Below are positions 801 through 41,571 of a stretch of DNA of 64,000 nucleotides, piece by piece. Made by a program: the position numbers and the translations under genes. The stretch spans positions 1,816 to 65,815 of the forward strand of contig OMZI01000025.1 of assembly GCA_900315485.1 (NCBI GenBank). The letters run 5' to 3'. Each line of letters opens with the position of its first letter. Positions within the stretch are counted from its first letter, which is position 1. The notes under the pieces are model-generated. The model was given only the letters and a program-made list of their open reading frames with translations, made no database searches and was not told the origin of the DNA. The stretch comes from an uncultured Eubacteriales bacterium. GTDB taxonomy: Bacteria; Bacillota; Clostridia; Peptostreptococcales; Anaerovoracaceae.

Positions 801-2045
801 ATGGAACTGTATTTTCCGCTTGTACTGGACGGAGCCAACGGGACTGAGCTCCAGAAGAGAGGATATGACAGCAGCAAGTGCACAGAGGCATGGGTGCTCG
901 AGCATCCTGAGGTGATGGTGCAGCTGCAGAGAGAATATATCGAGGCCGGGAGCGACGTCGTATATGCGCCGACTTTCGGAGCCAACAGGGTCAAGCTCGA
1001 GGAAAACGGCATATTCAACCAGGTCGGGGATTTCAACAGGAGGCTTGTAGAGATCTCGAAGAAGGCTGTCGAAAGTGCCGGAAAGGATGCTCTTATCGCA
1101 GGTGACATCGCGACTACGGGCAAATTCCTCGCGCCTCTCGGGGACCTCACTTTCGATGAGCTCTATGACATCTATCATGAGCAGGCTGAGGCGCTTGAAG
1201 AGGCGGGCGTCGACATGTTCGTGGTCGAGACGATCATGACTGTGCCGGATGCGAGAGCCGCTTTGCTCGCAGTCAAAGACGTAAGCGACAAGCCTGTGCT
1301 CGTATCTTTCACATGCGATGAGAATGGCAGGACTCTGACAGGTACTGATGTGTGTGCTGCTCTTGTGATCATGCAGGGTATGGGCATCGATGCTTTCGGG
1401 CTCAACTGCAGCACAGGGCCTGAGGAGATGCTTGCACAGTTTAAGAGACTCGGCGAGTTCGCTGAAGTGCCTCTCGCGGTCAAGCCTAATGCCGGCCTCC
1501 CTGAGGTCGTGGATGGGAAGACTGTCTACAGCTGCACACCTGAAGAGCTCGCGAGCTACACAGACAGGTTCAACGGAGCAGGAGCTGCCATGTTCGGCGG
1601 ATGCTGTGGCACGGGACCTGATCACATAGCCGCTCTGAAGGGTTCGCTCGGCGGATTCAGCCTGAAGAAGCCATGCCCTCAGCACACGGACAGAAACCAG
1701 GTAGTATGCGCGACCGAGAAGGACGCTTTCGTTCTGGACATGGACGCTGCAGGCGGGATCAGTGTGGACACAGTTCTCTCATGTGATGCTGACCTTGAGA
1801 CTAAGATAAAGAAGGAAAACAGGGGCGATGCTGATGTCATCGCAATTGAGATAGCGAAGGATGCAGATCTTGACGAGTTCGGGGCGGCACAGTACGCAAT
1901 AAGAAAACCGCTTTGCATAGCGTGCGAAGATGCGAAGCTGCTCGAAGAGGCGCTGAGGCTGTATCAGGGCAGAGCGATATATGCAGGATCGCTCAGCACA
2001 GATGAACTGGCGCCGATGGTAAGAAAATACGGACTAATAATATGA
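801..2045 (+). CDS. Stand-alone homocysteine S-methyltransferase (MetH Hcy-binding domain) protein with a C-terminal extension of about 125 aa and unclear fold
   Basis: GGAGGG RBS at 791..796. Hcy-domain zinc cysteines are present (GLNCSTGP, GGCCGTGPDHI). No B12-binding DxHxxG motif in this protein. Confidence 0.8.
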   Translation: MELYFPLVLDGANGTELQKRGYDSSKCTEAWVLEHPEVMVQLQREYIEAGSDVVYAPTFGANRVKLEENGIFNQVGDFNRRLVEISKKAVESAGKDALIAGDIATTGKFLAPLGDLTFDELYDIYHEQAEALEEAGVDMFVVETIMTVPDARAALLAVKDVSDKPVLVSFTCDENGRTLTGTDVCAALVIMQGMGIDAFGLNCSTGPEEMLAQFKRLGEFAEVPLAVKPNAGLPEVVDGKTVYSCTPEELASYTDRFNGAGAAMFGGCCGTGPDHIAALKGSLGGFSLKKPCPQHTDRNQVVCATEKDAFVLDMDAAGGISVDTVLSCDADLETKIKKENRGDADVIAIEIAKDADLDEFGAAQYAIRKPLCIACEDAKLLEEALRLYQGRAIYAGSLSTDELAPMVRKYGLII

Positions 2046-2827
2046 AGAGAGAAATACTTGTTGTCAGCTTTGGGACGACTTCGGAAGAGAGCCGTAGACT
2101 TAATATAGGGGCAGTCGAGCAGGCAATAGAGGATGCATGCGGATTGACCGTGCGCAGGGCATTCACCTCGCAGATGATCATCAATATCATCGCAAAGAGG
2201 GAGGGCGTCAGGATCGACAATGTCAGGGAAGCCCTGGACAGAGCTGTACGGGACGGAATAAATACTCTTGTCGTACAGCCTACTCATCTCATGAGTGGCC
2301 TTGAGTATGACAAGCTGAAGGGAATACTGGATGAGTACCTGGGGCATTTTGAGAGTACTGCACTGGGAGCGCCTCTTCTGACAGGCGATGAGGATTTTGC
2401 CGGAGTCGCCGGTGCTCTGGTCGGGGCATGCGCTGAGTATGACGATGGGGAGACCGCTGTCGTGCTGATGGGCCACGGGACCGAAGCGGCGGCAAACGGG
2501 ATATACGACAGAATGCAGGAGACTTTTGCCCGTATGGGAAAGAAGAACTTCTTCGTCGGAACGGTTGAAGCCAGCCCGTCTCTTGATGATGTGATCGCTG
2601 CAACCGGGAAGGGAGATTACAGAAGAGTCGTCCTGAGGCCGCTGATGCTCGTTGCGGGAAACCACGCAGTGAATGACATGGCCGACCCGGATGATCCGGA
2701 CTCGTGGTATTCAAGGTTCACAGCTGCCGGATATGAGACGGTATGTGTGATAGAAGGACTCGGACAGATACCTGCGGTGCGGGATATTTATGCAGATCAT
2801 GCACTGGGAGCAATTGATTCAATCTGA
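2042..2827 (+). CDS. cbiK: Sirohydrochlorin cobaltochelatase, anaerobic type (cytoplasmic)
   Basis: ATGA start/stop overlap with the upstream gene. Motifs VVSFGTT, VVQPTHLMSGLEYDKL and VLMGHGTE. Confidence 0.9.
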   Translation: MKREILVVSFGTTSEESRRLNIGAVEQAIEDACGLTVRRAFTSQMIINIIAKREGVRIDNVREALDRAVRDGINTLVVQPTHLMSGLEYDKLKGILDEYLGHFESTALGAPLLTGDEDFAGVAGALVGACAEYDDGETAVVLMGHGTEAAANGIYDRMQETFARMGKKNFFVGTVEASPSLDDVIAATGKGDYRRVVLRPLMLVAGNHAVNDMADPDDPDSWYSRFTAAGYETVCVIEGLGQIPAVRDIYADHALGAIDSI

Positions 2828-2930: not shown

Positions 2931-2959
2931 TTGATGCAGTAACTATGCGGTGTTACAAT
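2931..2959 (+). promoter_or_regulatory. Candidate sigma-A promoter feeding the riboswitch
   Basis: TTGATG (2931..2936), 17-nt spacer, TGtTACAAT extended -10 (2954..2959). Confidence 0.4.
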
Positions 2960-2994
2960 TACTTGGCACTGCGGAATAATTAATAACATGAAGT

Positions 2995-3185
2995 ATACGG
3001 TGCCCCGTTTCAGCCGGGGAGAATAGGGAAGCGGGTGAGAATCCCGCGCGATCCCGTCACTGTGATAGAGCGTGTCAGTTCATTATGTCACTGGAAAGGA
3101 TCCGTCCTGTTAACAGCAGGACCGGATGATCCGGGAAGGCGAACCGACATGATATGTTCTTCAGCCAGGAGACCTGCCGGTACTT
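2995..3185 (+). promoter_or_regulatory. Cobalamin (B12) riboswitch
   Basis: Conserved core AATAGGGAAGCGGGTGAGAATCCCGCGCGATCCCGTCACTGT (about 3022..3063). B12 box AGCCAGGAGACCTGCC (3163..3178). GTCACTGGAAAGG and CCGGGAAGGC elements lie between them. The expression platform (3186..3381) is not resolved by eye. Confidence 0.9.
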
Positions 3186-3381
3186 AAGTACAGGAGACTT
3201 CCGTCCGCTGCCTGCAGTGCAACCGGCAGACCGGAAAGTTTCCGAGATCACGAGGAATTGGTCGTACAGTTTAATGGAGCCTTGCTCCTTATTTCTGTCA
3301 CCTTTTTTACCGTGAGAAGTAAGAAGGCTTTTTTTATGTTAAGCCCGAAATATTTTCTTGATGGAAAAGGAGAGAAGAAAA

Positions 3382-4608
3382 ATGAAGAAGAAGTTACTGG
3401 TAATGCTGCTGGGAATCACCATGATTTTCTCATTGTCACTCATGACAGCATGCGGAGGCGGAAGCGGTGAAGCTGAGGAGGCAAAGTCTGATGACCCTGC
3501 TGCAGAATGCGCTGCTCTGATCGACGCTATCTACGTTCAGGAGTATACAGATGATACTTATGCTCAGTGCGAAGCTGCCAAGAAGGCATGGGATGCTCTG
3601 ACTGATGAGCAGAAGGAACAGGTAGAGGGCGAGTTCGCTGATCCTGATTACTTCGGAAGAGACACAGGTGATGCATCGAAGGATGATCCTCTGAACCAGG
3701 ATGAGATCGGCGAGAACGAGCTGCTCGTTGTAAGCTTTGGTACATCCTTCAACGAGAGCCGTGCAGAGGACATCGGCGGCATCGAGAAGGCTCTGCAGGA
3801 AGCTAATCCTGACTGGTCTGTAAGAAGAGCTTTCACAGCACAGATCATCATCAACCACGTATATGCACGTGACGGAGAGAAGATCGACAACGTTGATCAG
3901 GCACTCCAGAGAGCTGTAGACAACGGCGTCAAGAACCTCGTTGTACAGCCTACACACCTGATGCACGGAGCTGAGTATGATGAGCTCATCTCTGCACTCG
4001 ATGGATACAAGGATAAGTTCGATTCTGTAAAGGTAGCTGAGCCGCTTCTCGGTACTGTAGGCGAGGATGCAACAGTCATCAACGCTGACAAGGAAGCTGT
4101 TGCAAAGGCTGTAGTTGCTGAGGCTGTAAAGGCAGGCGGATTCGATTCACTTGACGCTGCAGCAGCAGACGGTACTGCATTCGTATTCATGGGACACGGT
4201 ACTTCCCACGAGGCAAGCATTTCATATGACCAGATGCAGGAGCAGATGAAGCAGCTCGGATACAAGAACGTATTCATCGGAACTGTTGAGGGCAACCCTG
4301 AAGATACAGCATTCCCTGCAGTCAAGAAGGCTGTTGAGGATGCCGGATACACAAAGGTCATCCTGAGACCTCTGATGGTAGTAGCAGGCGACCACGCCAA
4401 CAACGACATGGCCGGCGATGAAGAGGGCGCATGGTACTACGGATTCGTCAACGGCGGCGAGTTCGAGGTTGAAGGCGCTGACAAGCCTGTTGATACAGGC
4501 GCCGGGCTCGGAGCTGATAACGTAAGCAGCCAGATCGAAGGACTCGGAAGGATCGCAGACATCCAGAAGATCTACATTGCACACACTGCTGAGGCAATGG
4601 CTCAGTAA
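3382..4608 (+). CDS. Exported lipoprotein with a complete CbiK-like class-II chelatase domain
   Basis: AAAGGAGAG RBS. Signal and lipobox MKKKLLVMLLGITMIFSLSLMTAC. Acidic linker, then VVSFGTS, VVQPTHLMHGAEYDEL and FMGHGTSHE, collinear with CbiK at 2042..2827. Confidence 0.8.
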   Translation: MKKKLLVMLLGITMIFSLSLMTACGGGSGEAEEAKSDDPAAECAALIDAIYVQEYTDDTYAQCEAAKKAWDALTDEQKEQVEGEFADPDYFGRDTGDASKDDPLNQDEIGENELLVVSFGTSFNESRAEDIGGIEKALQEANPDWSVRRAFTAQIIINHVYARDGEKIDNVDQALQRAVDNGVKNLVVQPTHLMHGAEYDELISALDGYKDKFDSVKVAEPLLGTVGEDATVINADKEAVAKAVVAEAVKAGGFDSLDAAAADGTAFVFMGHGTSHEASISYDQMQEQMKQLGYKNVFIGTVEGNPEDTAFPAVKKAVEDAGYTKVILRPLMVVAGDHANNDMAGDEEGAWYYGFVNGGEFEVEGADKPVDTGAGLGADNVSSQIEGLGRIADIQKIYIAHTAEAMAQ

Positions 4609-4675: not shown

Positions 4676-5545
4676 ATGAAAAAGTCAAAAATAATCAAAC
4701 TAATCGCATGTGCTGTGCTTGCGTTCGCCATGCTTGCGCTTGCAGGCTGCGGCGGAGGACAGGCCGCTGATCCTGGAATCGAGGATGGCACTTACGTCGC
4801 GACCTTCACCACGGACAACTCGATGTTCCATGTGAACGAGGCCAATCAGGACAAGGGAATCCTGACTGTCGAGGACGGGAAGATGACGATCCATGTCAGC
4901 CTCCAGTCGAAGAAGATAGTCAACCTGTATCCCGGCCTTGCTGAGGATGCTCAGAAGGACGGGGCAGAGCTCCTGGAGCCGACAACAGACACTGTAACTT
5001 ACAGCGACGGCTACACTGATGAGGTATACGGATTCGATGTTCCGGTGCCTGCGCTTGACGAGGAATTCGACCTCGCACTGCTCGGGACCAAGGGAACCTG
5101 GTATGACCACAAGGTAGTCGTATCTGACCCAGTTCCCGGAGATGACATTCAGGCGGTTATCGGCGGTGAGAAAGAAGCTTCCGGTGACGCTGAAACCTCA
5201 GACAATGGGGAAGAAGCTGCTGCGCCAGATATCGCCGAAGGAGAGCATACAGTAGATGTAGCTCTTGAAGGAGGTACGGGCAAAGCGTCAGTCACTTCGC
5301 CTGCTACCATTAAAGTATCCGGCGACAGCGTCACGGCTGTGATCGAATGGAGCAGTCCGCACTACGACTACATGATCGTAGAAGGCGAGAAGTATCTGCC
5401 TGTGAACGAGGACGGAAACTCGGTGTTTGAGATCCCTGTCCTCACCTTCGACAAGCCGATGACCGTGATCGCCGATACCACGGCAATGAGCGAGCCGCAT
5501 GAGATCGAATATACACTTACATTCGACTCATCATCGGTAAAATAA
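4676..5545 (+). CDS. Lipoprotein with two beta-rich domains of about 115 aa separated by an acidic linker; function unknown
   Basis: Lipobox LALAGCGG. Domain 1 starts EDGTYVATFTTDNSMFHV. The linker is GGEKEASGDAETSDNGEEAAAPD. Domain 2 includes AVIEWSSPHYDYMIVEGEKY. Confidence 0.75.
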   Translation: MKKSKIIKLIACAVLAFAMLALAGCGGGQAADPGIEDGTYVATFTTDNSMFHVNEANQDKGILTVEDGKMTIHVSLQSKKIVNLYPGLAEDAQKDGAELLEPTTDTVTYSDGYTDEVYGFDVPVPALDEEFDLALLGTKGTWYDHKVVVSDPVPGDDIQAVIGGEKEASGDAETSDNGEEAAAPDIAEGEHTVDVALEGGTGKASVTSPATIKVSGDSVTAVIEWSSPHYDYMIVEGEKYLPVNEDGNSVFEIPVLTFDKPMTVIADTTAMSEPHEIEYTLTFDSSSVK

Positions 5546-5654: not shown

Positions 5655-6923
5655 TTGAAGAATAAGTTTACGAGTACAGGAGAATTACATAATAACGACA
5701 GAGCAGGCGCAACAACTGCAATGACTGCAATAACCGGAAAGGCTGGCAAAACTGCAAAGATTTTGCTTGTCCTGATGGCGATGCTGGCTGTTTTGCTGTG
5801 TGCAGGTTGCGGCAGCAGGGATAAGGCAGCTGAAACTATCGAGGAGAAAGCAGACAGCATCCTCGAGGAGCACAAGACGGGATCAATGGAGCTCGAGTAT
5901 GCTGACCAGTTCCATGTCGACTATTACGAGGACGGCATAGCTGTTGTAACTATCGAAGACGGCCTGCAGTACCTGGTGATCGAGGGCTCGGACGAGCTGC
6001 CTGAGTGGCTTCCTGACGAAGAGATCGGAGAGATGACGATCATCTGCGCACCGGCACAGTCTGTCTACCTTGCGGCATCGTCCGCGATGGACCTTATAGA
6101 TGCAGCGGGCGCGCTCGATTCTGTCAAAATGGCAAGCACCCAGGCCAAGGACTGGGGCATCGACAAGATAAGAAAACTTGTGGAAGACGGCACGATACAG
6201 TACATCGGAAAGTACCGCGCGCCTGACTATGAAGCTTTGCTCGAAGGAGATATCGACCTTGCGATCGAGTCCACGATGATATACCACAATCCTCAGATCA
6301 AGGAGGAGATAGAGGAGGTCGGGATACCTGTGCTGGTCGAGAGGTCGAGCTACGAAGCAGACCCTCTGGGAAGGCTTGAATGGATCAAGCTGTACGGACT
6401 GCTGCTCGGAAAGAGCGAAGAGGCTGAGTCCTTCTTCAATGCGGCAGTAGAAAAGATAAAGTCCGTTGACACGGATGCGGTCTCTGAGGCGCCTTCCGTG
6501 GCATTCTTCTCGGTCAATTCGAACGGCTCCGTGGTCGTGAGAAAGCCGGGGGATTACGTGACAAAAATGATAGAAACTGCCGGCGGGACATACGCGCTTG
6601 ACGGCATAACTGAAGAAGAGGACAATGCGCTTTCCACCATGAACATGCAGATGGAAGCGTTCTATGATAAAGCGGTGGATGCTGATATACTCATCTATAA
6701 CAGCACCATCGAGGGAAGCCTTGAAAGCATAAGCGACCTGACGGCGCTGTCTGACAAGTTCGCTGACTTCAGGGCTGTGAAGGAGGGCCGCGTGTGGTGC
6801 ACAGATGCGAGCACCTTCCAGAAGACAACAGGCGTTGCGGATATGACTGTCGAGATGAACAGGATATTCGCAGGCGAAGAGGATGACAGCGATATGGAGT
6901 ATTTCCATAAGCTTGCTAGATAA
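5655..6923 (+). CDS. ABC substrate-binding lipoprotein of the FecB/BtuF (cluster A) type; BtuF-like by riboswitch context
   Basis: Lipobox LLCAGCGS. The track start at 5655 is TTG; an alternative ATG at 5721 gives a normal-length signal peptide. Confidence 0.8.
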   Translation: MKNKFTSTGELHNNDRAGATTAMTAITGKAGKTAKILLVLMAMLAVLLCAGCGSRDKAAETIEEKADSILEEHKTGSMELEYADQFHVDYYEDGIAVVTIEDGLQYLVIEGSDELPEWLPDEEIGEMTIICAPAQSVYLAASSAMDLIDAAGALDSVKMASTQAKDWGIDKIRKLVEDGTIQYIGKYRAPDYEALLEGDIDLAIESTMIYHNPQIKEEIEEVGIPVLVERSSYEADPLGRLEWIKLYGLLLGKSEEAESFFNAAVEKIKSVDTDAVSEAPSVAFFSVNSNGSVVVRKPGDYVTKMIETAGGTYALDGITEEEDNALSTMNMQMEAFYDKAVDADILIYNSTIEGSLESISDLTALSDKFADFRAVKEGRVWCTDASTFQKTTGVADMTVEMNRIFAGEEDDSDMEYFHKLAR

Positions 6924-7016
6924 GTGCGCAGCGTCATGTATATATGAGATCACCATTCAGAATATATGCATGCCGCTAGTCATTATCTGCAAGATATGAG
7001 AAATTGGGAAGTGAAA

Positions 7017-8030
7017 ATGGGAGAAGGCAGGAAATCGAGGATAATGGTAACCTATGCGGCGCTTGCGCTGCTTCTTGCCGTGCTCATAATCGCAAATATA
7101 CTGACGGGAAGCTCGTCGATGAGCGCCGGAGAGGCGGTCAGGATACTTTTCTCGCATGACACTGTGAGCAAGTTCGGCAGGATAGTATGGGACATCCGCA
7201 TGCCGAGGATCCTGGCGGCTGTTTTCCTCGGAGGCGCTCTTTCCGTATCCGGATTCCTGCTGCAGACGTTCTTCGCAAATCCTATCGCAGGCCCGTACAT
7301 CCTCGGAATCTCGTCAGGCGCAAAACTCTGCGTCGCGACTGCCATGATATACGCTTTGCGCGAGGGGATGATGACGAGCTCGCTGATGATGATCATCGCT
7401 GCCTTCGCGGGATCGCTCGCTGTTACGGCAGTGATACTCGTGATCTCGAGGCGCATAAGAAGCATGGCGGTCCTCATAGTCTGCGGCGTGATGGTGGGAT
7501 ACATATGCTCAGCGGTCACTGAATTCCTGGTGACTTTCGCTGATGATTCAAACATAGTCAACCTGCACAACTGGTCGATGGGAAGCTTCTCGGCTGTCAG
7601 CTGGGACAATGTGAAGACTCTTACGGTTGTCGTTGTGCTGGCTGTTATTGCAGCTTTTATGCTGTCAAAACCTATGACCGCTTTTCAGATGGGTGAGCAG
7701 TACGCGAGGAGTGTCGGCGTCAACATAAGATCGTTCAGGATCGGGCTCATTACGCTTTCGAGCCTGCTGTCGGCAACGGTCACTGCTTTTGCCGGCCCTA
7801 TATCCTTCGTTGGCATAGCTGTCCCGCATCTGGTGAGGTCGATAACGAAGACTTCGAAGCCGATCGTGATGGTGCCGCAGTGCTTCCTCGGGGGCGCTGT
7901 GTTCTGCCTGTTCTGCGACCTGCTTGCGAGGAATCTGTTCGCGCCGACTGAGATGAGCATCAGTACGATGACTGCTGTGTTCGGTGCGCCGGTCGTCATA
8001 TTCATGCTGCTCGACAGAAAGAAGAGGTGA
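7017..8030 (+). CDS. FecCD-family ABC permease (BtuC-like)
   Basis: ATG at 7017 after GGGAAGTG. Polytopic membrane protein with FecCD-like motifs (MPRILAAVFLGGALSVSG, GPISFVGIAVPH). Confidence 0.85.
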   Translation: MGEGRKSRIMVTYAALALLLAVLIIANILTGSSSMSAGEAVRILFSHDTVSKFGRIVWDIRMPRILAAVFLGGALSVSGFLLQTFFANPIAGPYILGISSGAKLCVATAMIYALREGMMTSSLMMIIAAFAGSLAVTAVILVISRRIRSMAVLIVCGVMVGYICSAVTEFLVTFADDSNIVNLHNWSMGSFSAVSWDNVKTLTVVVVLAVIAAFMLSKPMTAFQMGEQYARSVGVNIRSFRIGLITLSSLLSATVTAFAGPISFVGIAVPHLVRSITKTSKPIVMVPQCFLGGAVFCLFCDLLARNLFAPTEMSISTMTAVFGAPVVIFMLLDRKKR

Positions 8031-8034
8031 TGCT

Positions 8035-8910
8035 GTGAGTACTGAAAAGAAGAATAGTGCAGCATCAGCTGGCGCATATGCTTCAGAGAAAATGGCTGAT
8101 GCGAACAACAATATGAATAGCGGAACAACGGGCACAGTGATAAGCACCAGCGCCCTCGACACGGGATACGAGAAGAAGGTCGTTGTCAGCGGCGTTGAGA
8201 TAGAGATAAGAAGGGGCGAGATCGCTGCCCTGATAGGTCCTAACGGTGCAGGAAAGTCGACTGTCCTCAAGACGATAGCAGGGCAACTTGACCCGCTTGG
8301 CGGAACAGTATATATAGAAGGCCGGGCGAGGGGCGAATACAATCAGAGTGAGATCGCCCGTATGCAGGCTGTGATGCTGACTGACAGGATGCCGGCTGAG
8401 AAGATGACATGCGAGGAAGCTGTGTCGCTCGGCCGCTACCCGTACACCGGAAGGCTCGGGATACTCTCGGCGGAAGACAGGCGCATCGTCAGGGAGTCGA
8501 TGGAGCTTGTGCATGTCGAAGAGCTTGCGGACCGTGACTACAATGCGATAAGTGACGGCCAGCGTCAGCGCGTTTTGCTCGCAAGAGCCATCTGCCAGGA
8601 GCCTGAGATCATGATACTCGACGAGCCTACGTCGTATCTGGACATACGGCATAAGCTCGAATTCCTTGACCTGCTGAGGTCGCTAGTTGAGGAGAGGCAG
8701 ATAGGAGTCATCATGTCGATGCATGAGCTGGAGCTCGCACACATGGTTGCAGATAAAGTGATATGCATTTCTTCCGAGGGAAGAGTGGAAATGACAGGAA
8801 CTCCTGATGAAGTCTTTGCAGATGACGCGATAAGTAGGCTGTATGGAATGGAAGAGGGCAGGCTTACGGAGCTGTACTCAGGATTTCTTGACAGCATCAG
8901 AAGTAAATAG
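8035..8910 (+). CDS. ABC ATP-binding protein (BtuD/FecE-like)
   Basis: GTG at 8035, 5 nt after the permease stop and behind GAAGAGGTG. Walker A GPNGAGKST, signature SDGQRQR, Walker B ILDEPTSYLD. An alternative ATG lies at 8092. Confidence 0.85.
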   Translation: MSTEKKNSAASAGAYASEKMADANNNMNSGTTGTVISTSALDTGYEKKVVVSGVEIEIRRGEIAALIGPNGAGKSTVLKTIAGQLDPLGGTVYIEGRARGEYNQSEIARMQAVMLTDRMPAEKMTCEEAVSLGRYPYTGRLGILSAEDRRIVRESMELVHVEELADRDYNAISDGQRQRVLLARAICQEPEIMILDEPTSYLDIRHKLEFLDLLRSLVEERQIGVIMSMHELELAHMVADKVICISSEGRVEMTGTPDEVFADDAISRLYGMEEGRLTELYSGFLDSIRSK

Positions 8911-28425: not shown

Positions 28426-29115
28426 ATGGCAAGAGGAAAAGCATACGGAGTAGGCGTAGGCCCGGGAGATCCCGAGCTGATGACACTCAAGGCCTGCAGG
28501 CTTATCAGAGAAAATGAAGTTATGGCAGTTCCGGGCAAGGTGCCGCAGGACGCAGTCGCATACAAGATCGCAGCTGCAGCGGTACCAGAGCTCGCAGACA
28601 AGACTCTGATCCCGATATACATGCCGATGGTCAGGGACCGCGAGCTGATCGCAAAGAGCCACAGGGAAGCTGCAGACACCATAGAGAAGTATCTCGATGA
28701 GGGCAAGAACGTAGTATACCTTACTCTCGGAGACTCCACCATCTACTGCACTTTCAGCTACATCCAGCAAATTCTGGAAGATGAAGGTTATGAAGTAGAG
28801 CTCGTCAGCGGCATCCCGTCTTTCTGCGCAGCAGCTGCAAGGCTTGGAATATCCCTGACAGAGTGGAATGAGCCGCTGCATGTAATACCGGGTCTTCACA
28901 ACACCGAAGGGACACTTGAGTGGCCGGGCAACTATGCCATCATGAAGTCCGCAAGCAAAATGCCTCAGGTCAAGGCAATGCTTGCAAGATCGGGATACGA
29001 TGCGCAGGCAGTAGAGAACTGCAGCATGGAGACAGAGAAGGTGTACCGCTCGCTTGAGGAGATACCGGATGAAGCCGGATACTTCTCGCTCATAATAGCT
29101 AAGGAAAATAAATAG
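28426..29115 (+). CDS. cbiL: Cobalt-factor II / precorrin-2 C20-methyltransferase
   Basis: Motifs YGVGVGPGDPELMTLKA and LTLGDSTIY. Confidence 0.9.
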   Translation: MARGKAYGVGVGPGDPELMTLKACRLIRENEVMAVPGKVPQDAVAYKIAAAAVPELADKTLIPIYMPMVRDRELIAKSHREAADTIEKYLDEGKNVVYLTLGDSTIYCTFSYIQQILEDEGYEVELVSGIPSFCAAAARLGISLTEWNEPLHVIPGLHNTEGTLEWPGNYAIMKSASKMPQVKAMLARSGYDAQAVENCSMETEKVYRSLEEIPDEAGYFSLIIAKENK

Positions 29116-29118: not shown

Positions 29119-29955
29119 ATGATAGAACTGAAAGAACTCACCAAGAAATTCGGTAACTTTACCGCTGTCGACGGTCTCTCCTTCGAGATCGGGACCGGCG
29201 AGTTCTTTGGGCTGCTCGGACCTAACGGCGCAGGCAAGACGACGACCATCAGCATGCTGTCGACTGTCCTGCTTCCTACTTCGGGCGAGATATATATAGA
29301 CGGGGTTAAACTGACAAGAGCTGCTTCCGAGCAGAAGAGGAAGCTCGCTGTCATCACTCAGGAATATTCGATGCGCCAGGATATGACCATGGATGAAGTC
29401 ATGGAGTATCAGGGGCGCCTTTATTTTATGCCGAAAAAGGAGATAAAGAAGAGGTCGGACGAGCTTCTCGAGTTCGCAGGGCTCGGGGACTACCACAGGA
29501 GAGTGGTGCGTCACCTGTCTGGCGGAATGAAGAGAAAGCTCATGATATGCCGCGCCCTGCTTATAGAGCCGGAGATACTCCTCCTTGATGAGCCGACCGC
29601 AGGCATGGACGCACTCTCGAGGCGGCAGATGTGGAACCTCTTGAGACAGGTATCCGGTCAGAACATGACCATCCTCCTTACCACGCATTACATTGAAGAG
29701 GCAGAGGCACTCTGCGACAGAGTGGCCATGATCAACAGAGGCCGGCTCCAGAAGCTGGATTCACCACGTGCACTCATACAGGAGCTCGGCGAATTCACAG
29801 TAGACGAGACCGGAGAAGGCGACCTCAAGAGCACGCACTTCACCACAAGAGAAGAAGCGATCAGATATCTTGAGACAGCACCTTCAGACTCAACACTCAG
29901 GCAGACCACACTCGAGGACGTCTTCGTCGACGTCGCCGGACGCAAGCTGATATAA
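29119..29955 (+). CDS. ABC transporter ATP-binding protein (ABC-2/DrrA-like exporter type)
   Basis: Walker A GPNGAGKTTT, signature LSGGMKRKL, Walker B LLLDEPTAGMD. Confidence 0.85.
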   Translation: MIELKELTKKFGNFTAVDGLSFEIGTGEFFGLLGPNGAGKTTTISMLSTVLLPTSGEIYIDGVKLTRAASEQKRKLAVITQEYSMRQDMTMDEVMEYQGRLYFMPKKEIKKRSDELLEFAGLGDYHRRVVRHLSGGMKRKLMICRALLIEPEILLLDEPTAGMDALSRRQMWNLLRQVSGQNMTILLTTHYIEEAEALCDRVAMINRGRLQKLDSPRALIQELGEFTVDETGEGDLKSTHFTTREEAIRYLETAPSDSTLRQTTLEDVFVDVAGRKLI

Positions 29956-29957
29956 CT

Positions 29958-30689
29958 ATGGGAATTATTACGGTACTTTGGGAAAAATGGGTCGAGTTCA
30001 GACGAGACTTCTATAAGATCACCGTCGCGGCGATGATCTCTCCTTTGATGTACCTGATTATCTTCGGCCTGGGCATCCGTACGACTTCACACGGCGAGCC
30101 GTACATACACTTCCTCGTGCCGGGACTCGTCGCGATGGTCACGATGACCGGCAGCTTCGGCGCGATAGCCCAGAGCATGAGCGTTCAGAGGCTGTATGAA
30201 AAGGCGCTCGACCAGGTGATGGTATCGCCTACGCCTCTGTGGCAGTTCATACTGGGGCAGGTGATAGGCGGCAGCCTGAGAGGCCTGTATGCTGCATGCG
30301 TCATACTCATCCTCACGATACCTGTAAGGCACGGACTCATCTTCAACGGGCTGTCATTTTTCATAATGCTCCTGAACGGGATGGTGTTTGCAACGCTGGC
30401 GCTGGTATTGTCATTCCTTGCGAAGACATACTCGGACGCACCGAGATTCAATACGTACATAATCATGCCGATGTCGTTCCTGTGCAATACATTCTTTTCG
30501 ACTGAAGAGATGCCGGACGGCTTCAGGCAGATCATTGAGATACTGCCGCTGTCTCAGACGAGCGGTATGATAAGAAGCATAGCAAACGGGGAGGCACCGG
30601 GAGCATACGGATTCATAGTGCTCCTTGCATACCTCGTGATCCTCGGCAGCATATCCGTATATTTTATCTATAAGAAGAAGAACCTGTAA
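29958..30689 (+). CDS. ABC-2 type transporter permease
   Basis: Six predicted TM segments, 243 aa, immediately after the ATPase. Confidence 0.8.
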   Translation: MGIITVLWEKWVEFRRDFYKITVAAMISPLMYLIIFGLGIRTTSHGEPYIHFLVPGLVAMVTMTGSFGAIAQSMSVQRLYEKALDQVMVSPTPLWQFILGQVIGGSLRGLYAACVILILTIPVRHGLIFNGLSFFIMLLNGMVFATLALVLSFLAKTYSDAPRFNTYIIMPMSFLCNTFFSTEEMPDGFRQIIEILPLSQTSGMIRSIANGEAPGAYGFIVLLAYLVILGSISVYFIYKKKNL

Positions 30690-31363
30690 TGATCAACGCA
30701 CACAGAAAAGCACTGGTAATACTGTTCATAATGATGCTGACTGCAGCATCATGTATTACTGTGTCTGCGGAGCCGGTGGTCATCAAGGACAAGGAAAAGG
30801 GCATCGGCGTTGAGACCGAAGAGCGCGACCGCTCGCTCCAGGACGGGACTCTTATCTACAGCATGACACCGGTATATCCCGAAGACTTTGACGAGGGGAC
30901 ATACGATGTCGATGCGCTCTCGAGCTCGCAGTTTTTCAAGATCACGCAGGCAAAACTCACGAATGACGGAGGCAGCATAGAGGCCGTCATCCGCATCTCG
31001 AGTACCAGCTACGCATACGTGTATCCGGGGACTGCGGCGGAGGCAGAGGCTGCAGATCAGAGCAAGTGGATACCGGCCGACGAGTCGAGCGGATTCGGAG
31101 AGTTCACGCTTGACGTCGAGGCGCTGAACAAGGAGATGCCGTGCGCTGCATACAGCAAGAAGAAGGCAAAATGGTATGACAGAGATATCGCATTTATCGC
31201 GGAGAGCCTGCCTCAGGAAAACCTCCACGTAGAGCTCTCGGCAGACGGCGGCACCATCGCTGACACGCAGGAAGCCGCGGTCAAAGTCATTTACATAGCG
31301 CTCGCCATCATAATCATCGGCGGGATACTCAATCACTTTATCAAGAAGCGCTTCTATGAGTAG
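30689..31363 (+). CDS. Secreted, C-terminally membrane-anchored protein carrying one copy of the same domain as the 4676..5545 lipoprotein
   Basis: TAATG overlap with the permease. N-terminal signal (ALVILFIMMLTAASCITVSA). Domain DEGTYDVDALSSSQFFKITQAKL...ISSTSYAYVYPGTAAEAEA...KWYDRDIAF. C-terminal TM segment VIYIALAIIIIGGIL. Confidence 0.65.
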   Translation: MINAHRKALVILFIMMLTAASCITVSAEPVVIKDKEKGIGVETEERDRSLQDGTLIYSMTPVYPEDFDEGTYDVDALSSSQFFKITQAKLTNDGGSIEAVIRISSTSYAYVYPGTAAEAEAADQSKWIPADESSGFGEFTLDVEALNKEMPCAAYSKKKAKWYDRDIAFIAESLPQENLHVELSADGGTIADTQEAAVKVIYIALAIIIIGGILNHFIKKRFYE

Positions 31364-31457: not shown

Positions 31458-31943
31458 ATGAGTCTATATTTCCCAATGTTTGTAGATCTGTCGCAGAAGA
31501 ACGTCCTCTTCATCGGGGCGGGCAAGATCTCTGCGAGAAGGCTTGTGAATATTTTCGATTTTGTCGGTTCGGTCACGGTCGTCGCGCCTGACTGCGAGCC
31601 GATCATTCAGAAGCTTGCGGATTCGGGATACATCACATACCACCGCAGGAGATTCGACGAGAACGACCTCGAAGGCATGGACATAGCCTTCATCTCGACC
31701 GGACATGCGGGAACTGATGTGAGAATCGCAGGCATGTGCAGGAGAAGAGGCATCCTCGTCAATGCCGCAGGCGACCAGTCGCTTTGCGATTTCTACTTCC
31801 CGGGCATCGCGCGCAAGGGACCTGTCGTAGTGGGCGTGACCGCGAGCGGGGAAAACCACAGCCTGGCTGCCGAGACGACAGGCAAGATCAAAAAGCTGCT
31901 CGACTACATAGATATTCCGGAAGACACCGATGCCGGAAGATAA
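31458..31943 (+). CDS. sirC: Precorrin-2 dehydrogenase / sirohydrochlorin-forming (CysG N-terminal domain type)
   Basis: Rossmann motif VLFIGAGKISARR, 161 aa. Confidence 0.85.
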   Translation: MSLYFPMFVDLSQKNVLFIGAGKISARRLVNIFDFVGSVTVVAPDCEPIIQKLADSGYITYHRRRFDENDLEGMDIAFISTGHAGTDVRIAGMCRRRGILVNAAGDQSLCDFYFPGIARKGPVVVGVTASGENHSLAAETTGKIKKLLDYIDIPEDTDAGR

Positions 31944-31964: not shown

Positions 31965-33302
31965 ATGGCTAACGAAGAGATCCTGAATCTTGCGAATGAT
32001 GTGCTTGATATATCAAGAAACAGGCTCCTTGTGAATCTGCGCTACATGGATGTGGCGCTGAGCATGCACAGGAGGTCTGTTTATGATGGGACCTTTTCGA
32101 CCGACGGGGACAGGATATACTATTCGCCTGAGCACGTACTGAGAGTCTACAGGGATTCGCGTGAGGAGATCACAAGAAACTATCTGCACCTTATCCTGCA
32201 CTGCATCTTCCTGCATCCGTTCGTGGGCACCAGGATCGACAGGAAGAGATGGGACCTGGCCTGCGACATAGCAGTCGAGGCATCCATAAACGACCTCGGC
32301 CTCACATGCACAAGATCTGACAGGGAGGACAGGCAGAACAAATACCTGAGAGAGATAAGGGCTGCGGTAAAAAACCTGACCGCTGAGAAGATATATGCGT
32401 GGCTCGGAGAGATGCAGTACTCTGAAGAGAGGCTCGCATACATGAGAGACATGTTCTCGCCGGATGACCACAGCGTCTGGTATGCGCCTGAGCATAAACA
32501 GGGCACAGCTCCTCAGGCACGCGAGCACATATCCGGCCCGTCTCAGGATGTGAACCTGACCGATGAGGATCAGTGGAAGAACATCGCAAAGCAGATCGAG
32601 ATGGAGCTTGAGATATTCGGCAAAGTCCGCGGCGAGTCCGCGGGGACTCTCGTCCAGAACATAAGAGCCGTGACACGCGAGAGATATGACTACACGGATT
32701 TTCTCAGAAAGTTCGCGGCCATGGGAGAAGAGATAAAGACTTCCGAGGATGAGTTCGACTACATCTACTACACCTACGGCCTGACGCATTACGGGAACAT
32801 GCCGCTCATAGAGCCGCTCGAATACAGAGAGGACCACAGGATCAGGGATTTTGTCATAGCGATAGATACCTCGGGCTCTGTGGCGGGAGAAGAGGTGCAG
32901 ACCTTCCTCCGCAGGACATATGGTATACTGAATCAACAGGGGTCATTCTTCCGCGACATCAACGTCCACATCATCCAGTGCGACGCGGAGATCCAGGACG
33001 ACACCGTGATCACCTGCACAGAGGATTTTGACAGATACCTTGAGACGATGGAGATTAGAGGCCTCGGAGGCACCGACTTCAGACCGGTCTTCACCTATGT
33101 GGACAGGCTCATAAAAGAGGGTGCGTTTTCAGACCTCAAGGGACTTATATATTTCACGGACGGACTCGGGACGTATCCTGAGGCAAAACCGCCGTACAGG
33201 ACGGCGTTCGTCTTCGTTGACGACGGCTACCATCTGCCTGCAGTGCCGGTGTGGGCGATAAGAGTATTGCTGCAGCAGGACGAGCTGCATGAGGGGATAT
33301 AG
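31965..33302 (+). CDS. DUF2201-type protein: N-terminal zincin-like domain plus C-terminal VWA domain
   Basis: HLILHCIFLH sits at the position of the HExxH motif, with the Glu replaced by Leu. MIDAS motif IAIDTSGSV. Confidence 0.75.
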   Translation: MANEEILNLANDVLDISRNRLLVNLRYMDVALSMHRRSVYDGTFSTDGDRIYYSPEHVLRVYRDSREEITRNYLHLILHCIFLHPFVGTRIDRKRWDLACDIAVEASINDLGLTCTRSDREDRQNKYLREIRAAVKNLTAEKIYAWLGEMQYSEERLAYMRDMFSPDDHSVWYAPEHKQGTAPQAREHISGPSQDVNLTDEDQWKNIAKQIEMELEIFGKVRGESAGTLVQNIRAVTRERYDYTDFLRKFAAMGEEIKTSEDEFDYIYYTYGLTHYGNMPLIEPLEYREDHRIRDFVIAIDTSGSVAGEEVQTFLRRTYGILNQQGSFFRDINVHIIQCDAEIQDDTVITCTEDFDRYLETMEIRGLGGTDFRPVFTYVDRLIKEGAFSDLKGLIYFTDGLGTYPEAKPPYRTAFVFVDDGYHLPAVPVWAIRVLLQQDELHEGI

Positions 33303-33344
33303 AGAATAGCAGAAAAGCTGAACTACTGAACGCAGGAGCAGACA

Positions 33345-34847
33345 ATGAATATCAGCAAAGCCAAGACACAGATAAGAAATGCAGTCAAAGCGTATCTCAC
33401 GAAGGATGAGTTCGGGGCATACGCCATCCCGGTCGAGAAGCAGAGACCGGTCCTTCTGATCGGACCTCCGGGGATAGGCAAGACCGCTATAATGGAGCAG
33501 ATAGCCGCAGAGCTCGGCATCGGCATCATTTCGTATTCCATGACTCATCACACGAGGCAAAGCGCCATCGGACTTCCGTTCATAAGCCACAAGGTATATG
33601 ACGGAAAAGAGTACGACGTCACCGAGTACACGATGAGCGAGATCATCTCATCCATATACGAGCTCATGGAAGAGACCGGAGTGAAGGAGGGCATCCTCTT
33701 CCTCGACGAGATCAACTGCGTGTCGGAGACCCTGTCGCCTCTGATGCTCCAGTTCCTTCAGTACAAGGTATTCGGAAGACACCGCATTCCTGACGGCTGG
33801 ATCATCGCATGCGCCGGAAACCCTCCGGAATACAACGATTCCGTCAGGGATTTTGACATCGTCACACTCGACAGACTCAAGAAGATCGATGTCGAGGCCG
33901 ACTACGACACATGGAAGGAATACGCGCTGAAGGCTGATATCCACCCGGCAGTCACGACCTTCCTCCAGAGCAAGAGGAACAGATTCTACTCGGTAGAGAC
34001 GACCGTAAGCGGCCGCAGCATTGTAACGCCGAGAGGCTGGGAAGACCTCAGCAAGATGCTGTATCTGTACGAGCAGAACAGCCTTGAGGTCGACGAGGAC
34101 CTGATCATCCAGTACCTGCAGGATCAGGCGGCCGCCAAGGAATTCGCTGTATATTACGACCTCTTCAACAAGTACAGGACGGAGTATCCGGTCGAGGACA
34201 TCCTCCTCGGCAAGGCTACGGGAGAGATGATCGGCCAGGCTGCCGATGCCGGATTCGATGAGGTATACACACTCATCGGACTCCTTCTCAGCAACGTGAG
34301 GACAGACATCCGCGCATGCAATACCGAGGAAAAGGTAATAGATGAGCTGAGGGCATGCCTCAAGGCTTATGCAGAGGAAGATCCGGGCGAGAAGACTCCG
34401 CAGGAGAGGCTTCTTGAGATCGCGGGAGATATGAGAAGCAGGCTCGAGGCCGGAAGAAAGTCAGGCTCAGTTGATCAGAACAGGCGCAGGGTCATGCTGA
34501 GGACGGCGGACATCCTGGACAGATTCGCATCGGAGACAGCAGGCGTGAAGGATTTCAATGAGTCCTTCGACATAATACGCGACAAGTTCAGCACTATCGT
34601 GAAGGCACATGCAGCGCAGGTGGGCAGGACTCAGGACAAGTTGACAGGGCTGTTCAGATTCGCCGAAAGCTGCTGGGGCGAGGGCAGAGAGATGCTGATG
34701 ATCGTGACAGAGCTTACCGCCGATGCCTCAAGTGCAGCATTCATAAACAAATACGGATGCGAGGAGTACTTCAGACACAACAAGGAGCTTCTGTTCAGCG
34801 AGAGACAGATAGAGATCGACCGCAAGATCGACCAGCTGGAGCTGTAA
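33345..34847 (+). CDS. MoxR/CbbQ-like AAA+ ATPase (AAA_5) with a C-terminal extension of about 200 aa
   Basis: CAGGAG RBS. Walker A GPPGIGKT. Walker B ILFLDEIN. ACAGNPPEY segment. Confidence 0.8.
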   Translation: MNISKAKTQIRNAVKAYLTKDEFGAYAIPVEKQRPVLLIGPPGIGKTAIMEQIAAELGIGIISYSMTHHTRQSAIGLPFISHKVYDGKEYDVTEYTMSEIISSIYELMEETGVKEGILFLDEINCVSETLSPLMLQFLQYKVFGRHRIPDGWIIACAGNPPEYNDSVRDFDIVTLDRLKKIDVEADYDTWKEYALKADIHPAVTTFLQSKRNRFYSVETTVSGRSIVTPRGWEDLSKMLYLYEQNSLEVDEDLIIQYLQDQAAAKEFAVYYDLFNKYRTEYPVEDILLGKATGEMIGQAADAGFDEVYTLIGLLLSNVRTDIRACNTEEKVIDELRACLKAYAEEDPGEKTPQERLLEIAGDMRSRLEAGRKSGSVDQNRRRVMLRTADILDRFASETAGVKDFNESFDIIRDKFSTIVKAHAAQVGRTQDKLTGLFRFAESCWGEGREMLMIVTELTADASSAAFINKYGCEEYFRHNKELLFSERQIEIDRKIDQLEL

Positions 34848-34917: not shown

Positions 34918-35066
34918 TTGCGGCACTATTATTTCATCAAATACACTGAACATTTTGCATAGACGATATCAATAATTGCGCTGAGAATAATCAGATATAA
35001 TAATTCCATGAATAACGGCGTCAGCCGTATGTTTTTTGATGCTTGCGGGATGTAAGAGGTGTTTAT

Positions 35067-36215: not shown

Positions 36216-36293
36216 GCTGCGAGAAATAAACTGAATTCTATTGTTACAAGGAAGCAATTGAAGTTATTATTAAGAAACAGGAGAAAGTAACTT

Positions 36294-36947
36294 ATGGCAA
36301 CTAAAGAAGAATTACTGCAGAAAATGTCTGACTACGTCTTCGAGATGGAAGACGAAGAGATCGCTGATGTATGTGAAGAGTACATCGAAGCAGGATATGA
36401 TCCTCTCGACGGAATCCTTCACGGTCTTGTTGACGGAATGAACCGCGCAAGTGACATGTACGATCAGGAAGAGTACTTCGTAACCGACCTGCTGCTCTGC
36501 TCTGATGCGATGTACGCAGGACTCGACGTTCTGAGACCGCACCTTCCTGAAGATGCAAGCATGGGCGACTCGAAGAAGGCTGTAATCGGCGTTATCGAGG
36601 GCGACACACACGATATCGGCAAGAACCTCGTCAAGATCATGATGGAGACTGCAGGATTCGAGATGTACGACCTCGGAAGAGACGTTCCTATCGACAGCTT
36701 CATTGAGAAGGCGAAGGAAGTCGACGCTGACCTCATCATGATGTCCACACTGATGACAACAACCATGCCTGGCATGAGAACTGTCATCGAGAAGCTCAAA
36801 GAGCAGGGCATCAGAGACAACTTCAAGGTAATGGTAGGCGGAAGCCCGATCTCCATGAAGTATGCTGAGGACATCGGCGCTGACGGCTATTCAAGAAACG
36901 CTGTTGAGGCTGTAGAAGTAGCCAAGAAGCTCTGCGGATTAGAATAA
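36294..36947 (+). CDS. Methyltransferase cognate corrinoid protein (B12-binding_2 plus B12-binding domains)
   Basis: DxHDxG (GDTHDIGKN), SxL (MSTLMTT) and GG (VMVGGSP) motifs. Confidence 0.9.
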   Translation: MATKEELLQKMSDYVFEMEDEEIADVCEEYIEAGYDPLDGILHGLVDGMNRASDMYDQEEYFVTDLLLCSDAMYAGLDVLRPHLPEDASMGDSKKAVIGVIEGDTHDIGKNLVKIMMETAGFEMYDLGRDVPIDSFIEKAKEVDADLIMMSTLMTTTMPGMRTVIEKLKEQGIRDNFKVMVGGSPISMKYAEDIGADGYSRNAVEAVEVAKKLCGLE

Positions 36948-36976
36948 TAAACCATCACCTGGGAGGAAAAGTCATA

Positions 36977-38779: not shown

Positions 38780-38790
38780 AGGATATAAAT

Positions 38791-39816: not shown

Positions 39817-39862
39817 GTAAATGGCATCATGACTGAAAAGTCAGATACAGAGGAGACTGTGC

Positions 39863-40639: not shown

Positions 40640-40696
40640 ACAGCAGCATTGAGTGCTGCAGCGATTTCAGTCAGTGAAACCGGAGGGGTGGATATA

Positions 40697-41566: not shown

Positions 41567-41571
41567 GAAGG

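Follow-up and report, generated by a model that had tools for sequence, protein, structure and literature searches.

An exported CbiK-family lipoprotein heads a cobalamin-riboswitch operon with NEAT-fold and BtuFCD-like partners and may capture corrinoids at the surface of Clostridia

Introduction

Gut communities are shaped by competition for B12-type cofactors, and the known machinery for capturing these cofactors outside the cell all comes from Bacteroides. There, the riboswitch-controlled surface lipoproteins BtuG, BtuH, BtuJ and BtuK capture cobamides and feed a transporter, the outer-membrane protein BtuB, their corrinoid binding being experimentally established (PMC6143338, PMC12751083, PMC13616437), while extracellular cobamide capture in Gram-positive Firmicutes has been described in a 2026 review as 'entirely uncharacterized' (PMC13616437). 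Here we describe a candidate for such a function, an exported lipoprotein of the class II chelatase family CbiK, which we term lipo-CbiK. It is encoded at positions 3382-4608 of a 64,000-nucleotide (64-kb) stretch of DNA from an uncultured Eubacteriales bacterium of the Anaerovoracaceae (GenBank assembly GCA_900315485.1, contig OMZI01000025.1, positions 1,816 to 65,815); this whole stretch is referred to below as the window. Lipo-CbiK shares with BtuG, BtuH, BtuJ and BtuK the proposed logic of a riboswitch-controlled surface lipoprotein, and differs from them in fold, as theirs are unrelated (beta-propeller, jelly-roll DUF4465 and others).

Exported CbiK homologues are already known as a kind. 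IhtB/FetB of Porphyromonas gingivalis resembles lipo-CbiK in its export as a lipoprotein, its intact His/Glu/His site, an adjoining Peripla_BP_2/FecCD/ABC importer and a cobalamin riboswitch, but is only ~37% identical, comes from a Gram-negative, works as an outer-membrane lipoprotein with a TonB-dependent receptor as partner, and has neither the conserved N-terminal module nor the NEAT partner described below. It has been characterised with haem and porphyrins only, namely for haem binding, for its action as a Co and Mn chelatase towards a porphyrin analogue, and for production of Mn-protoporphyrin IX (PMC13065792). The periplasmic CbiKP of Desulfovibrio vulgaris (structure 2xvx) is likewise exported, retains the chelatase site and is accompanied by a FecCD-type importer and cob genes; unlike lipo-CbiK it carries a Sec rather than a lipoprotein signal, has acquired two haem histidines and has no NEAT partner. 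Work by Lobo from 2008 reportedly found that this protein keeps its chelatase activity in vitro, and the title of a 2017 study by Lobo is said to assign the two histidines a role in haem binding. A further chelatase-family protein outside the cytoplasm, BtuS, is found in Bacteroides btu/hmu-like loci with names taken from B12 transport, but belongs to class I (CobN-like), has an unrelated fold and a phenotype in haem-iron assimilation; it was proposed to serve metalloporphyrin salvage (PMC6460266, citing Rodionov 2003). BtuX of B. thetaiotaomicron was also considered as a possible CbiK, and its identity is not given in its paper.

The arrangement of the operon itself recalls the Isd haem relay of Staphylococcus and Bacillus (IsdH/B, IsdA, IsdC, IsdE, IsdF), with which it shares a surface receptor, NEAT domains, a cluster-A lipoprotein and a FecCD permease. 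NEAT is the classic fold for handing tetrapyrroles between surface proteins. The operon departs from the Isd relay in having a B12 riboswitch instead of Fur, lipid or transmembrane anchors instead of sortase anchoring, NEAT domains that score below the Pfam threshold, and a chelatase-fold protein at the point of entry. Our literature search for an exported CbiK or a NEAT domain tied to cobalamin in Gram-positives returned nothing relevant, and no literature was found linking a CbiK-fold or NEAT-fold protein to corrinoid uptake, in a search that did not reach Rodionov et al. 2003, JBC. The lipo-CbiK clade is distinct among exported CbiKs in being Gram-positive and lipid- or wall-anchored, in its N-terminal module, in its NEAT-fold partners and fusions, and in being without the haem ligands of CbiKP.

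Results

Lipo-CbiK is the first gene behind a cobalamin riboswitch

The only Rfam match within the window is a cobalamin riboswitch that ends 188 nucleotides (nt) 5' of lipo-CbiK, which is the first gene behind it (Table 1). An earlier note on this DNA, made from its letters alone, had placed the gene in just this position together with a BtuFCD-like importer, and the genes downstream indeed encode Peripla_BP_2, FecCD and ABC proteins. Within the expression platform, a U-rich stretch pairs with the Shine-Dalgarno sequence in the minimum-energy fold. Promoter-like hexamers directly 5' of the riboswitch, a weak signal when taken alone, suggest that the operon is a transcription unit separate from the cytoplasmic cbiK gene upstream. 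This gene (2042-2827, + strand) lies 5' of the riboswitch and outside its control. It shares 4 nt with the end of a 414-residue gene with a homocysteine S-methyltransferase domain (MetH N-terminal-like, 801-2045, + strand), a pairing that recurs in three other loci (L001, L002 and L004).

Table 1. Positions of the operon features and of a second NEAT-containing module in the window (aa, amino acids)
Feature	Position	Strand	Basis or detail
Promoter-like -35/-10 hexamers directly 5' of the riboswitch	2931..2980	+	Consensus scan, 2 sites vs 1.1 expected
Cobalamin riboswitch aptamer, operon leader	2981..3194	+	Rfam RF00174, 101.7 bits, E 2.7e-24, full model 1-189
Expression platform	3195..3381	+	Terminator-like hairpin 3276-3288 with T-rich tail; fold z-score -2.66
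Lipo-CbiK open reading frame	3382-4608	+	ATG 3382 to stop 4606-4608, 408 aa
Lipoprotein signal peptide, aa 1-24	3382..3453	+	Lipobox LMTA/C; lipidated Cys24 predicted by direct reading
Conserved N-terminal module, aa ~38-108	3493..3705	+	Conservation profile, 75 sequences
Complete CbiK (class II chelatase) domain, aa 109-408 and stop codon	3706..4608	+	Pfam E 5.2e-63
Second lipoprotein, Lipo2, with two homologous NEAT-fold domains	4676..5545	+	D1 4760-5155, D2 5201-5542
BtuF-like substrate-binding lipoprotein (Peripla_BP_2)	5655..6923	+	Pfam E 2.2e-28; lipobox LLCAG/C
BtuC-like permease (FecCD family)	6966..8030	+	Pfam E 3.5e-79
BtuD-like ABC ATPase	7984..8910	+	Pfam ABC_tran E 7.7e-29
DrrA-like ABC ATPase	29119-29955	+	Between cbiL (28426-29115) and sirC (31458-31943)
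ABC-2 permease	29958-30689	+	Between cbiL and sirC
NEAT-like protein, 224 aa	30689-31363	+	Signal peptide, D1-type NEAT-like domain, C-terminal transmembrane anchor

A conserved signal peptide and N-terminal module place the protein outside the cell

The lipo-CbiK start codon is preceded by a Shine-Dalgarno sequence, AAGGAGAG, 8 nt upstream, and the protein begins with MKKKLLVMLLGITMIFSLSLMTA followed by CGGGS, exactly the textbook lipoprotein signal that the earlier note had read there. We scanned one genome per species and obtained at least 586 confirmed matching stretches; the ortholog counts given below refer to the best 80 of these loci. A signal peptide with a lipobox was recognisable in 74/80 of the orthologues, and we conclude from this conservation that lipo-CbiK is exported. 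The same count, together with protein-level conservation of the stretch between lipobox and chelatase domain, excludes a true start downstream of the signal peptide, which had been raised at the outset as a way for the protein to be cytoplasmic.

The ~85 residues between the lipobox and the chelatase domain had been described as an acidic, helical-looking linker. The region is there and is predicted to be helical, but it is no linker: it ranks among the best-conserved parts of lipo-CbiK and is therefore a functional module rather than a spacer. Its consensus reads AALIDAIYVQE.TD.T.AQCE.AKKAWDALT..QKE.VEGE.ADPDYFGRDTGDASKDDPLN, with many positions at least 95% identical across families, and corresponds to a predicted helical hairpin followed by a segment, DPDYFGRDTGDASKDDP.N, that is nearly invariant across families. 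Helices in the module were also predicted, at low confidence, in a single-sequence AlphaFold2 (AF2) model of lipo-CbiK (predicted local distance difference test, pLDDT, 40), and no Pfam family matched the module at E <= 0.01. Scans with two peptides from it, YVQEYTDD and DEQKEQVE, as patterns recovered the lipo-CbiK family.

Larger relatives place the clade outside the cell independently. Representatives of the clade after 50% clustering include proteins of 500-1,600 aa, and all of the seven long top-scoring representatives that were scanned (978-1,623 aa) hold the CbiK domain internally, two of them with choline-binding (cell-wall) repeats, one with immunoglobulin-like (Ig) domains and one with fn3. 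Among P0001, L060 (6001-8325) and P0361-P0422, some relatives carry two tandem units of N-terminal module and CbiK domain, and others are giant surface proteins of up to 1,623 aa with choline-binding repeats, Ig-like or fn3 domains. P0001 (692 aa) had been suspected of being a CbiK-NEAT fusion and turned out to be such a tandem duplication with a Sec signal.

The chelatase domain is complete and keeps its active site

The domain matches the Pfam family CbiK (PF06180) nearly end to end, with residues 114-406 covering profile positions 3-261 of 262 at 213.3 bits against a cutoff of 26.2, and is collinear with the window's own cytoplasmic CbiK at 42% identity (E 2e-64). The claim that a complete class II chelatase fold follows the N-terminal region is thus borne out, as is the retention of both histidine motifs, found here as QPTHLMHGAEYD and FMGHGT. 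In sequence searches of the PDB the matches were FetB (9b86, 4e-32), CbiK (1qgo, 1e-29) and CbiKP (2xvx, 2e-27). Counted on the 1qgo alignment, H272, E303, H338 and D342 of lipo-CbiK align with H145, E175, H207 and D211 of Salmonella enterica CbiK, which we take to be its metal-binding and catalytic residues, a numbering consistent with that count. Each of the four is at least 95% conserved among 75 members of the lipo-CbiK clade. Three further histidines, H159, H195 and H276, are invariant in the clade and variable among cytoplasmic CbiKs.

The haem-binding site of CbiKP is not found in lipo-CbiK. The haem ligands of CbiKP are His96 and His103, both of which are histidines by count on chain 2xvx_A; in the 2xvx alignment the position of His96 is occupied by Asp200 and the insertion bearing His103 is absent, so that by sequence lipo-CbiK is without a CbiKP-type haem site. 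Its score against the NCBIfam model for sirohydrochlorin cobaltochelatase (NF047852 equivalog, 160.9 bits, cutoff 400) says little, because the cytoplasmic copy fails the same cutoff with 203.7 bits. An insertion of ~27 aa, NGGEFEVEGADKPVDTGAGLGADNV (window 4448-4530, aa 357-383), occurs only in members of the Anaerovoracaceae type, and most Lachnospiraceae orthologues are without it.

Cytoplasmic CbiKs (1qgo; window 2042-2827) share with lipo-CbiK the full-length fold and identical catalytic residues and are its nearest relatives in a neighbour-joining (NJ) tree. They differ in having no signal peptide, no N-terminal module and no 226-262 insertion, and in the window the cytoplasmic gene stands outside the riboswitch-controlled unit. 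In this tree, a rough one without support values, the lipo-CbiK clade groups with the cytoplasmic CbiKs of Firmicutes, to which it is 46-48% identical, and FetB and CbiKP (30-39%) fall elsewhere, a placement that suggests an independent export event.

A tandem NEAT-fold lipoprotein and domain fusions link lipo-CbiK to the importer

The second gene of the operon encodes a lipoprotein, Lipo2, with two domains (D1 and D2) that are homologous to each other (hhalign 97.5%, E 7e-12). Pfam NEAT matches were weak but consistent, occurring in 34/43 D1 and 28/40 D2 sequences with best single-domain E-values of 1.9e-6 and 7.3e-5, and the window's own domains, at 13-20 bits, lie below the cutoff of 32.8. 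An AF2 model of Lipo2 built on 120 homologues reached a pLDDT of 79.9, and a Foldseek search with it returned ten matches at E <= 0.001, all of them NEAT proteins (IsdH-N2N3, IsdB, IsdX1, Hbp2), with target-normalised template-modelling (TM) scores of 0.60-0.67 and probability 1.00. Weaker matches were mostly NEAT domains as well (IsdX2, IsdC, Shp). We therefore assign Lipo2, on its predicted structure, as a tandem NEAT-fold protein; a PDB sequence search with Lipo2 gave nothing and a profile search with D2 only a chance-level match. Invariant in D2 are a GG.G near the N-terminus, WSS..YDYM, the Met in DTTAMS, and HEIEY in the last strand. This H-x3-Y may correspond to the YxxxY with which classical NEAT domains ligate haem; in a second, membrane-anchored clade of paralogues the His of HEIEY is Val.

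The three importer genes follow. The frame of the BtuF-like protein probably has its true start at an internal Met; its only NCBIfam match is IsdE (E 6e-5), with no BtuF-specific NCBIfam match and no PDB sequence match. Among NCBIfam models the permease scores highest with that of the vitamin B12 ABC transporter permease BtuC, its 222 bits falling short of the cutoff (334). The ATPase scores ~195-203 bits with the haem and corrinoid ABC ATPase models, below their cutoffs (corrinoid, 194.6 vs 537), and its best model is the haem one.

Fusions of these proteins recur among the orthologues. D1 lies in the same open reading frame as lipo-CbiK in 25/74 orthologues, at the C-terminus in 24 and at the N-terminus in one, and one of the 25 carries both D1 and D2. 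D2 in turn forms the N-terminus of the BtuF-like protein in 22/57 orthologous frames, one of which carries both domains. Such fusions tie lipo-CbiK physically to the binding protein of the importer (Rosetta-stone evidence), and the pairing of CbiK with D1 and of D2 with BtuF suggests a hand-over order from CbiK through D1, D2 and BtuF to BtuCD.

The riboswitch-led operon is conserved across families of Clostridia

The best 80 of the at least 586 matching stretches are 60-89% identical across families and belong for the most part to Lachnospiraceae (Roseburia, Blautia, Butyrivibrio, Eubacterium ramulus and others), genomes labelled Faecalibacterium or Gemmiger, and Anaerovoracaceae; further matches include thousands of metagenomic protein clusters. 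Rumen and gut metagenomes are the source of the database proteins closest to the window's, which bear the labels Mogibacterium or Anaerovoracaceae. The order riboswitch, lipo-CbiK, NEAT lipoprotein, BtuF, BtuC, BtuD recurs in Lachnospiraceae, Oscillospiraceae-type and Anaerovoracaceae genomes, and synteny of the five genes is kept in most of the 80 loci, often continuing into CobQ and CobT.

Using an nhmmer profile seeded from the window's riboswitch, we found a riboswitch at most 700 nt 5' of the gene in 78/80 loci, and Rfam confirmed it in 10/11 sampled loci, the eleventh (L073) being without one by both methods. The survey suggested in the earlier note, of whether signal-bearing CbiK paralogues in Clostridia are linked to riboswitches or transporters, thus comes out in favour of the linkage. 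L073 has a TwoAYGGAY RNA match at 3743-3903, ~2 kb upstream, and L010 an edge fragment of a group II intron at 31-96. Apparent second CbiK-like genes in six loci (L008, L009, L012, L019, L022 and L058) were suspected of being exported paralogues; the one inspected, in L008, is an ordinary cytoplasmic CbiK.

The operon is also present in three genomes labelled Faecalibacterium or Gemmiger (L052, L074 and L078). F. prausnitzii is reported to be without much of the B12 pathway, and strain A2-165 does not grow without cobalamin (PMC7360928). The presence of the operon in likely non-producers favours uptake of finished corrinoids.

Exported CbiKs of other lineages also lie behind cobalamin riboswitches

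Searching with the FetB sequence, we read the genomic context of eight matches and looked for riboswitches. A protein 77% identical to FetB (L084) lies behind tandem cobalamin riboswitches (323-521 and 823-1071), which precede genes for a TonB receptor, the CbiK and a binding protein at the contig end. A riboswitch was found upstream in Halosquirtibacter (L085), Puteibacter (L083) and Clostridium ganghwense (L086), and directly upstream in a Desulfobacterales metagenome-assembled genome (L088), where a FecCD-type importer is present and the operon continues into cbiA and cbiC. In P. gingivalis (L089), where the FetB/IhtB sequence was found in the genome records, the riboswitch occupies 3262-3501, ~200 nt 5' of ihtA. 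No riboswitch was found in Mangrovibacterium (L087), where the start of the operon is cut off, and the 105 nt of upstream sequence available for a protein 71% identical to FetB (L082) say nothing on the matter. All five exported-CbiK proteins that were read from these loci carry a signal peptide or lipobox, and a Peripla_BP_2/FecCD/ABC importer adjoins the gene in L082, L084 and L086-L089, as in the window. Judging by the rough NJ tree, CbiK export may have had more than one origin, in each case under B12 control.

The P. gingivalis locus connects these observations to experimental work. Its single cobalamin riboswitch controls PGN_0704 ('btuB') and responds to coenzyme B12 (adenosylcobalamin, AdoCbl; Hirano et al. 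2012, PMC3422912), and ihtB is PGN_0705 (PMC10913741), which makes IhtB the product of the second gene in an experimentally validated B12-regulated operon. Thus ihtABCDE (L089 3262-10008) and the unit of the cbl-1 riboswitch and 'btuB' (PGN_0704) are the same locus. A review of haem and iron uptake in this species leaves the riboswitch unmentioned and reports that starving the cells of iron or haem leaves iht expression unchanged (PMC12094164). In O. alaskensis (Desulfovibrionaceae) cbiKP, too, has been observed to lie next to a riboswitch, which was interpreted as regulating biosynthesis (PMC11124144). The role of IhtB/FetB may thus be connected with B12, and the statement in the earlier note that the CbiKP and IhtB precedents concern haem only does not stand, as ihtA-ihtB lie behind a B12-responsive riboswitch and cbiKP is riboswitch-adjacent.

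A cobamide pathway follows the importer

A near-complete anaerobic cobamide pathway lies 3' of the importer, in a cluster spanning 9243-31943. It comprises CobQ, CobT-CobU, CobS, CobC, CbiB, CobD, CbiD, CbiF, CbiG, CbiH and CbiA, as well as CbiJ fused to a tetrapyrrole methylase domain, HemB, HemC, CobA-HemD, CbiL and SirC, and judging from these genes the organism is probably both a producer and an importer of cobamides. Cob operons of Firmicutes are usually expected to hold a cobalt transporter, which may sit elsewhere in the genome; among the annotated genes of this cluster, with inspection limited to the 64-kb window, there is no CbiMNQO, NiCoT or other recognisable cobalt transporter.

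Between cbiL and sirC the cluster holds a DrrAB-like exporter (a DrrA-like ATPase and an ABC-2 permease) and a membrane-anchored NEAT-like protein (Table 1). The latter was missed by a tblastn search of the window with D1 and D2, was recognised by eye, and had its D1-type domain confirmed by hhalign (99.0%, E 2.9e-18). The same module of exporter and NEAT-like protein adjoins cbiL and cbiK in L008.

Discussion

We judge it somewhat better than an even chance that lipo-CbiK captures corrinoids at the cell surface and hands them on, as the outermost member of a B12-riboswitch-repressed relay that would work by analogy with Isd. The proposal draws on B12-dependent repression, the position as first gene of an importer operon, the fusions with NEAT and BtuF domains, and the occurrence of the operon in reported non-synthesisers, while which ligand is bound, which way it is passed on and that lipo-CbiK acts as a binder rather than an enzyme are what we infer. 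At low intracellular cobamide, the riboswitch would permit synthesis of the five products, lipo-CbiK, the tandem NEAT-fold lipoprotein, the BtuF-like lipoprotein, BtuC and BtuD. The CbiK cleft, which normally holds cobalt-sirohydrochlorin between two histidines and a glutamate, would here hold a cobalt-corrin, be it a full cobamide or an incomplete corrinoid (cobinamide or cobyric acid, for example), which would then pass from NEAT domain 1 to NEAT domain 2, BtuF and BtuCD, as haem does in the staphylococcal relay. The idea fits chemically because the natural product of CbiK is itself a histidine-held cobalt-tetrapyrrole.

Several observations weigh against this proposal. The BtuF-, BtuC- and BtuD-like proteins all score under the curated B12-specific cutoffs. 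This organism, whose de novo pathway is nearly complete, does not strictly need uptake. Control by a riboswitch does not tell uptake from biosynthesis, and in the window as in L088 the operon may run on into cob genes. Enzymes turned into mere binders often lose catalytic residues, and the four residues with catalytic or metal-binding roles (H272, E303, H338, D342) do not vary within the clade; an intact site fits an enzyme as well as a binder. FetB, the closest solved homologue, acts as a Co/Mn chelatase in vitro, and the making of Mn-protoporphyrin in vivo depends on it (PMC13065792). A different function, which we consider unlikely but take seriously because the chelatase site is intact, is that of an extracellular cobaltochelatase. 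Lipo-CbiK would then insert Co2+ into a metal-free tetrapyrrole or corrinoid, be it sirohydrochlorin that the cell or its neighbours have released or a corrinoid free of metal, and the NEAT, BtuF and BtuCD proteins would import the cobalt complex, supplying cobalt or intermediates at low B12. In its favour are the invariant active site and the further histidines of the cleft, the Co and Mn chelatase activity and in-vivo metallation phenotype of FetB (PMC13065792), the in-vitro chelatase activity reportedly kept by CbiKP, the apparent want of a CbiMNQO-type transporter in the window's cob cluster, the DrrAB-like exporter that lies with a membrane-anchored NEAT-like protein between cbiL and sirC and again in L008, and the continuation of the L088 exported-CbiK operon into cbiA and cbiC. 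On the other hand, an extracellular pool of sirohydrochlorin or metal-free corrinoids is not known, an early cobalt intermediate would be useless to the Faecalibacterium-labelled carriers, whose lineage is reported to be without most of the pathway (PMC7360928), P. gingivalis, with an analogous system, cannot make the macrocycle (PMC6173696), a separate cytoplasmic CbiK is retained in the window, and the missing cobalt transporter concerns the 64-kb window and not the whole genome. A related idea, which we regard as a long shot, is that the operon serves a 'cobaltophore' cycle rather than vitamin scavenging, a tetrapyrrole being used for cobalt as siderophores are for iron. The DrrAB-like exporter (29119-30689) and the NEAT-like protein (30689-31363) would release a metal-free tetrapyrrole, for example sirohydrochlorin, the surface CbiK with its intact active site would insert scarce extracellular Co2+, and the relay of NEAT, BtuF and BtuCD would re-import the cobalt complex.

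That lipo-CbiK binds or handles haem or porphyrins, as proposed for CbiKP and IhtB/FetB, with the importer acting on haem or iron chelates, seems to us improbable. Its closest solved structure, 9b86, is named a haem-binding protein, its partner has the NEAT fold, whose characterised domains all handle haem, and within the importer the binding protein has IsdE as its sole NCBIfam match (E 6e-5) and the ATPase a haem ABC ATPase as its best model. Yet the gene is preceded by a cobalamin riboswitch rather than an iron or haem regulator in 78/80 loci, as are exported CbiKs in five other lineages, the haem-ligating histidines of CbiKP are absent, iht expression is unresponsive to iron and haem starvation (PMC12094164), and the operon lies within or adjoining cobamide genes. 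The intact metal site and three extra invariant histidines, the common B12-riboswitch regulation of cobalt uptake systems (PMC7689651), and the lack of a CbiMNQO in the window would also suit an extracellular metallochaperone that binds Co2+ at its His/Glu/His site with no tetrapyrrole. We hold this to be about as improbable, as FecCD/BtuCD importers with cluster-A binding proteins carry chelates and not free ions, the NEAT-fold partners and fusions argue for hand-over of a macrocycle, and the tetrapyrrole cleft and the domain as a whole are conserved far beyond what a simple metal site needs. We give almost no credence to the idea that the start is mis-called or that lipo-CbiK is a redundant biosynthetic enzyme of the cytoplasm. 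An intact catalytic site and a place ahead of cob genes would suit such an enzyme, but the signal peptide, lipobox and 85-residue N-terminal module are conserved in 74/80 orthologues, ATG 3382 has a good Shine-Dalgarno in front of it, homologues occur in fusion with choline-binding repeats, Ig and fn3 domains, and a distinct cytoplasmic CbiK is encoded at 2042-2827.

A surface CbiK with tandem NEAT-fold domains and BtuFCD under a cobalamin riboswitch offers a concrete candidate for cobamide capture in Gram-positives, and a very widespread one, with hundreds of carrier species from gut and rumen. If lipo-CbiK and its partners do bind corrinoids, this would be the first non-haem role for NEAT-type domains and the first corrinoid role for the chelatase fold, and two literatures on P. 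gingivalis that have not been joined, on iht iron and haem transport and on cbl-1/btuB, would describe one B12-related system. Should the cobaltophore cycle hold instead, the export of CbiK, acquired independently by Firmicutes, Bacteroidota and Desulfobacterota and always under B12 control, would amount to a general strategy of extracellular metallation.

Other genes of the window

Beyond the cob cluster, the window encodes a corrinoid-dependent methyltransferase cluster (35043-43372 and 49338-50444, + strand) with five URO-D/MtaA-like methyltransferases, a B12-binding corrinoid protein (36294-36947) and a RACo reductive activator (36977-38779), which implies a high demand of the organism for cobamides. 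Pairs of VWA and AAA proteins recall the accessory subunits of class I chelatases, and directly after sirC (31965-34847, + strand) lie genes for a DUF2201 protein (metallopeptidase-like and VWA-like) and an AAA ATPase.

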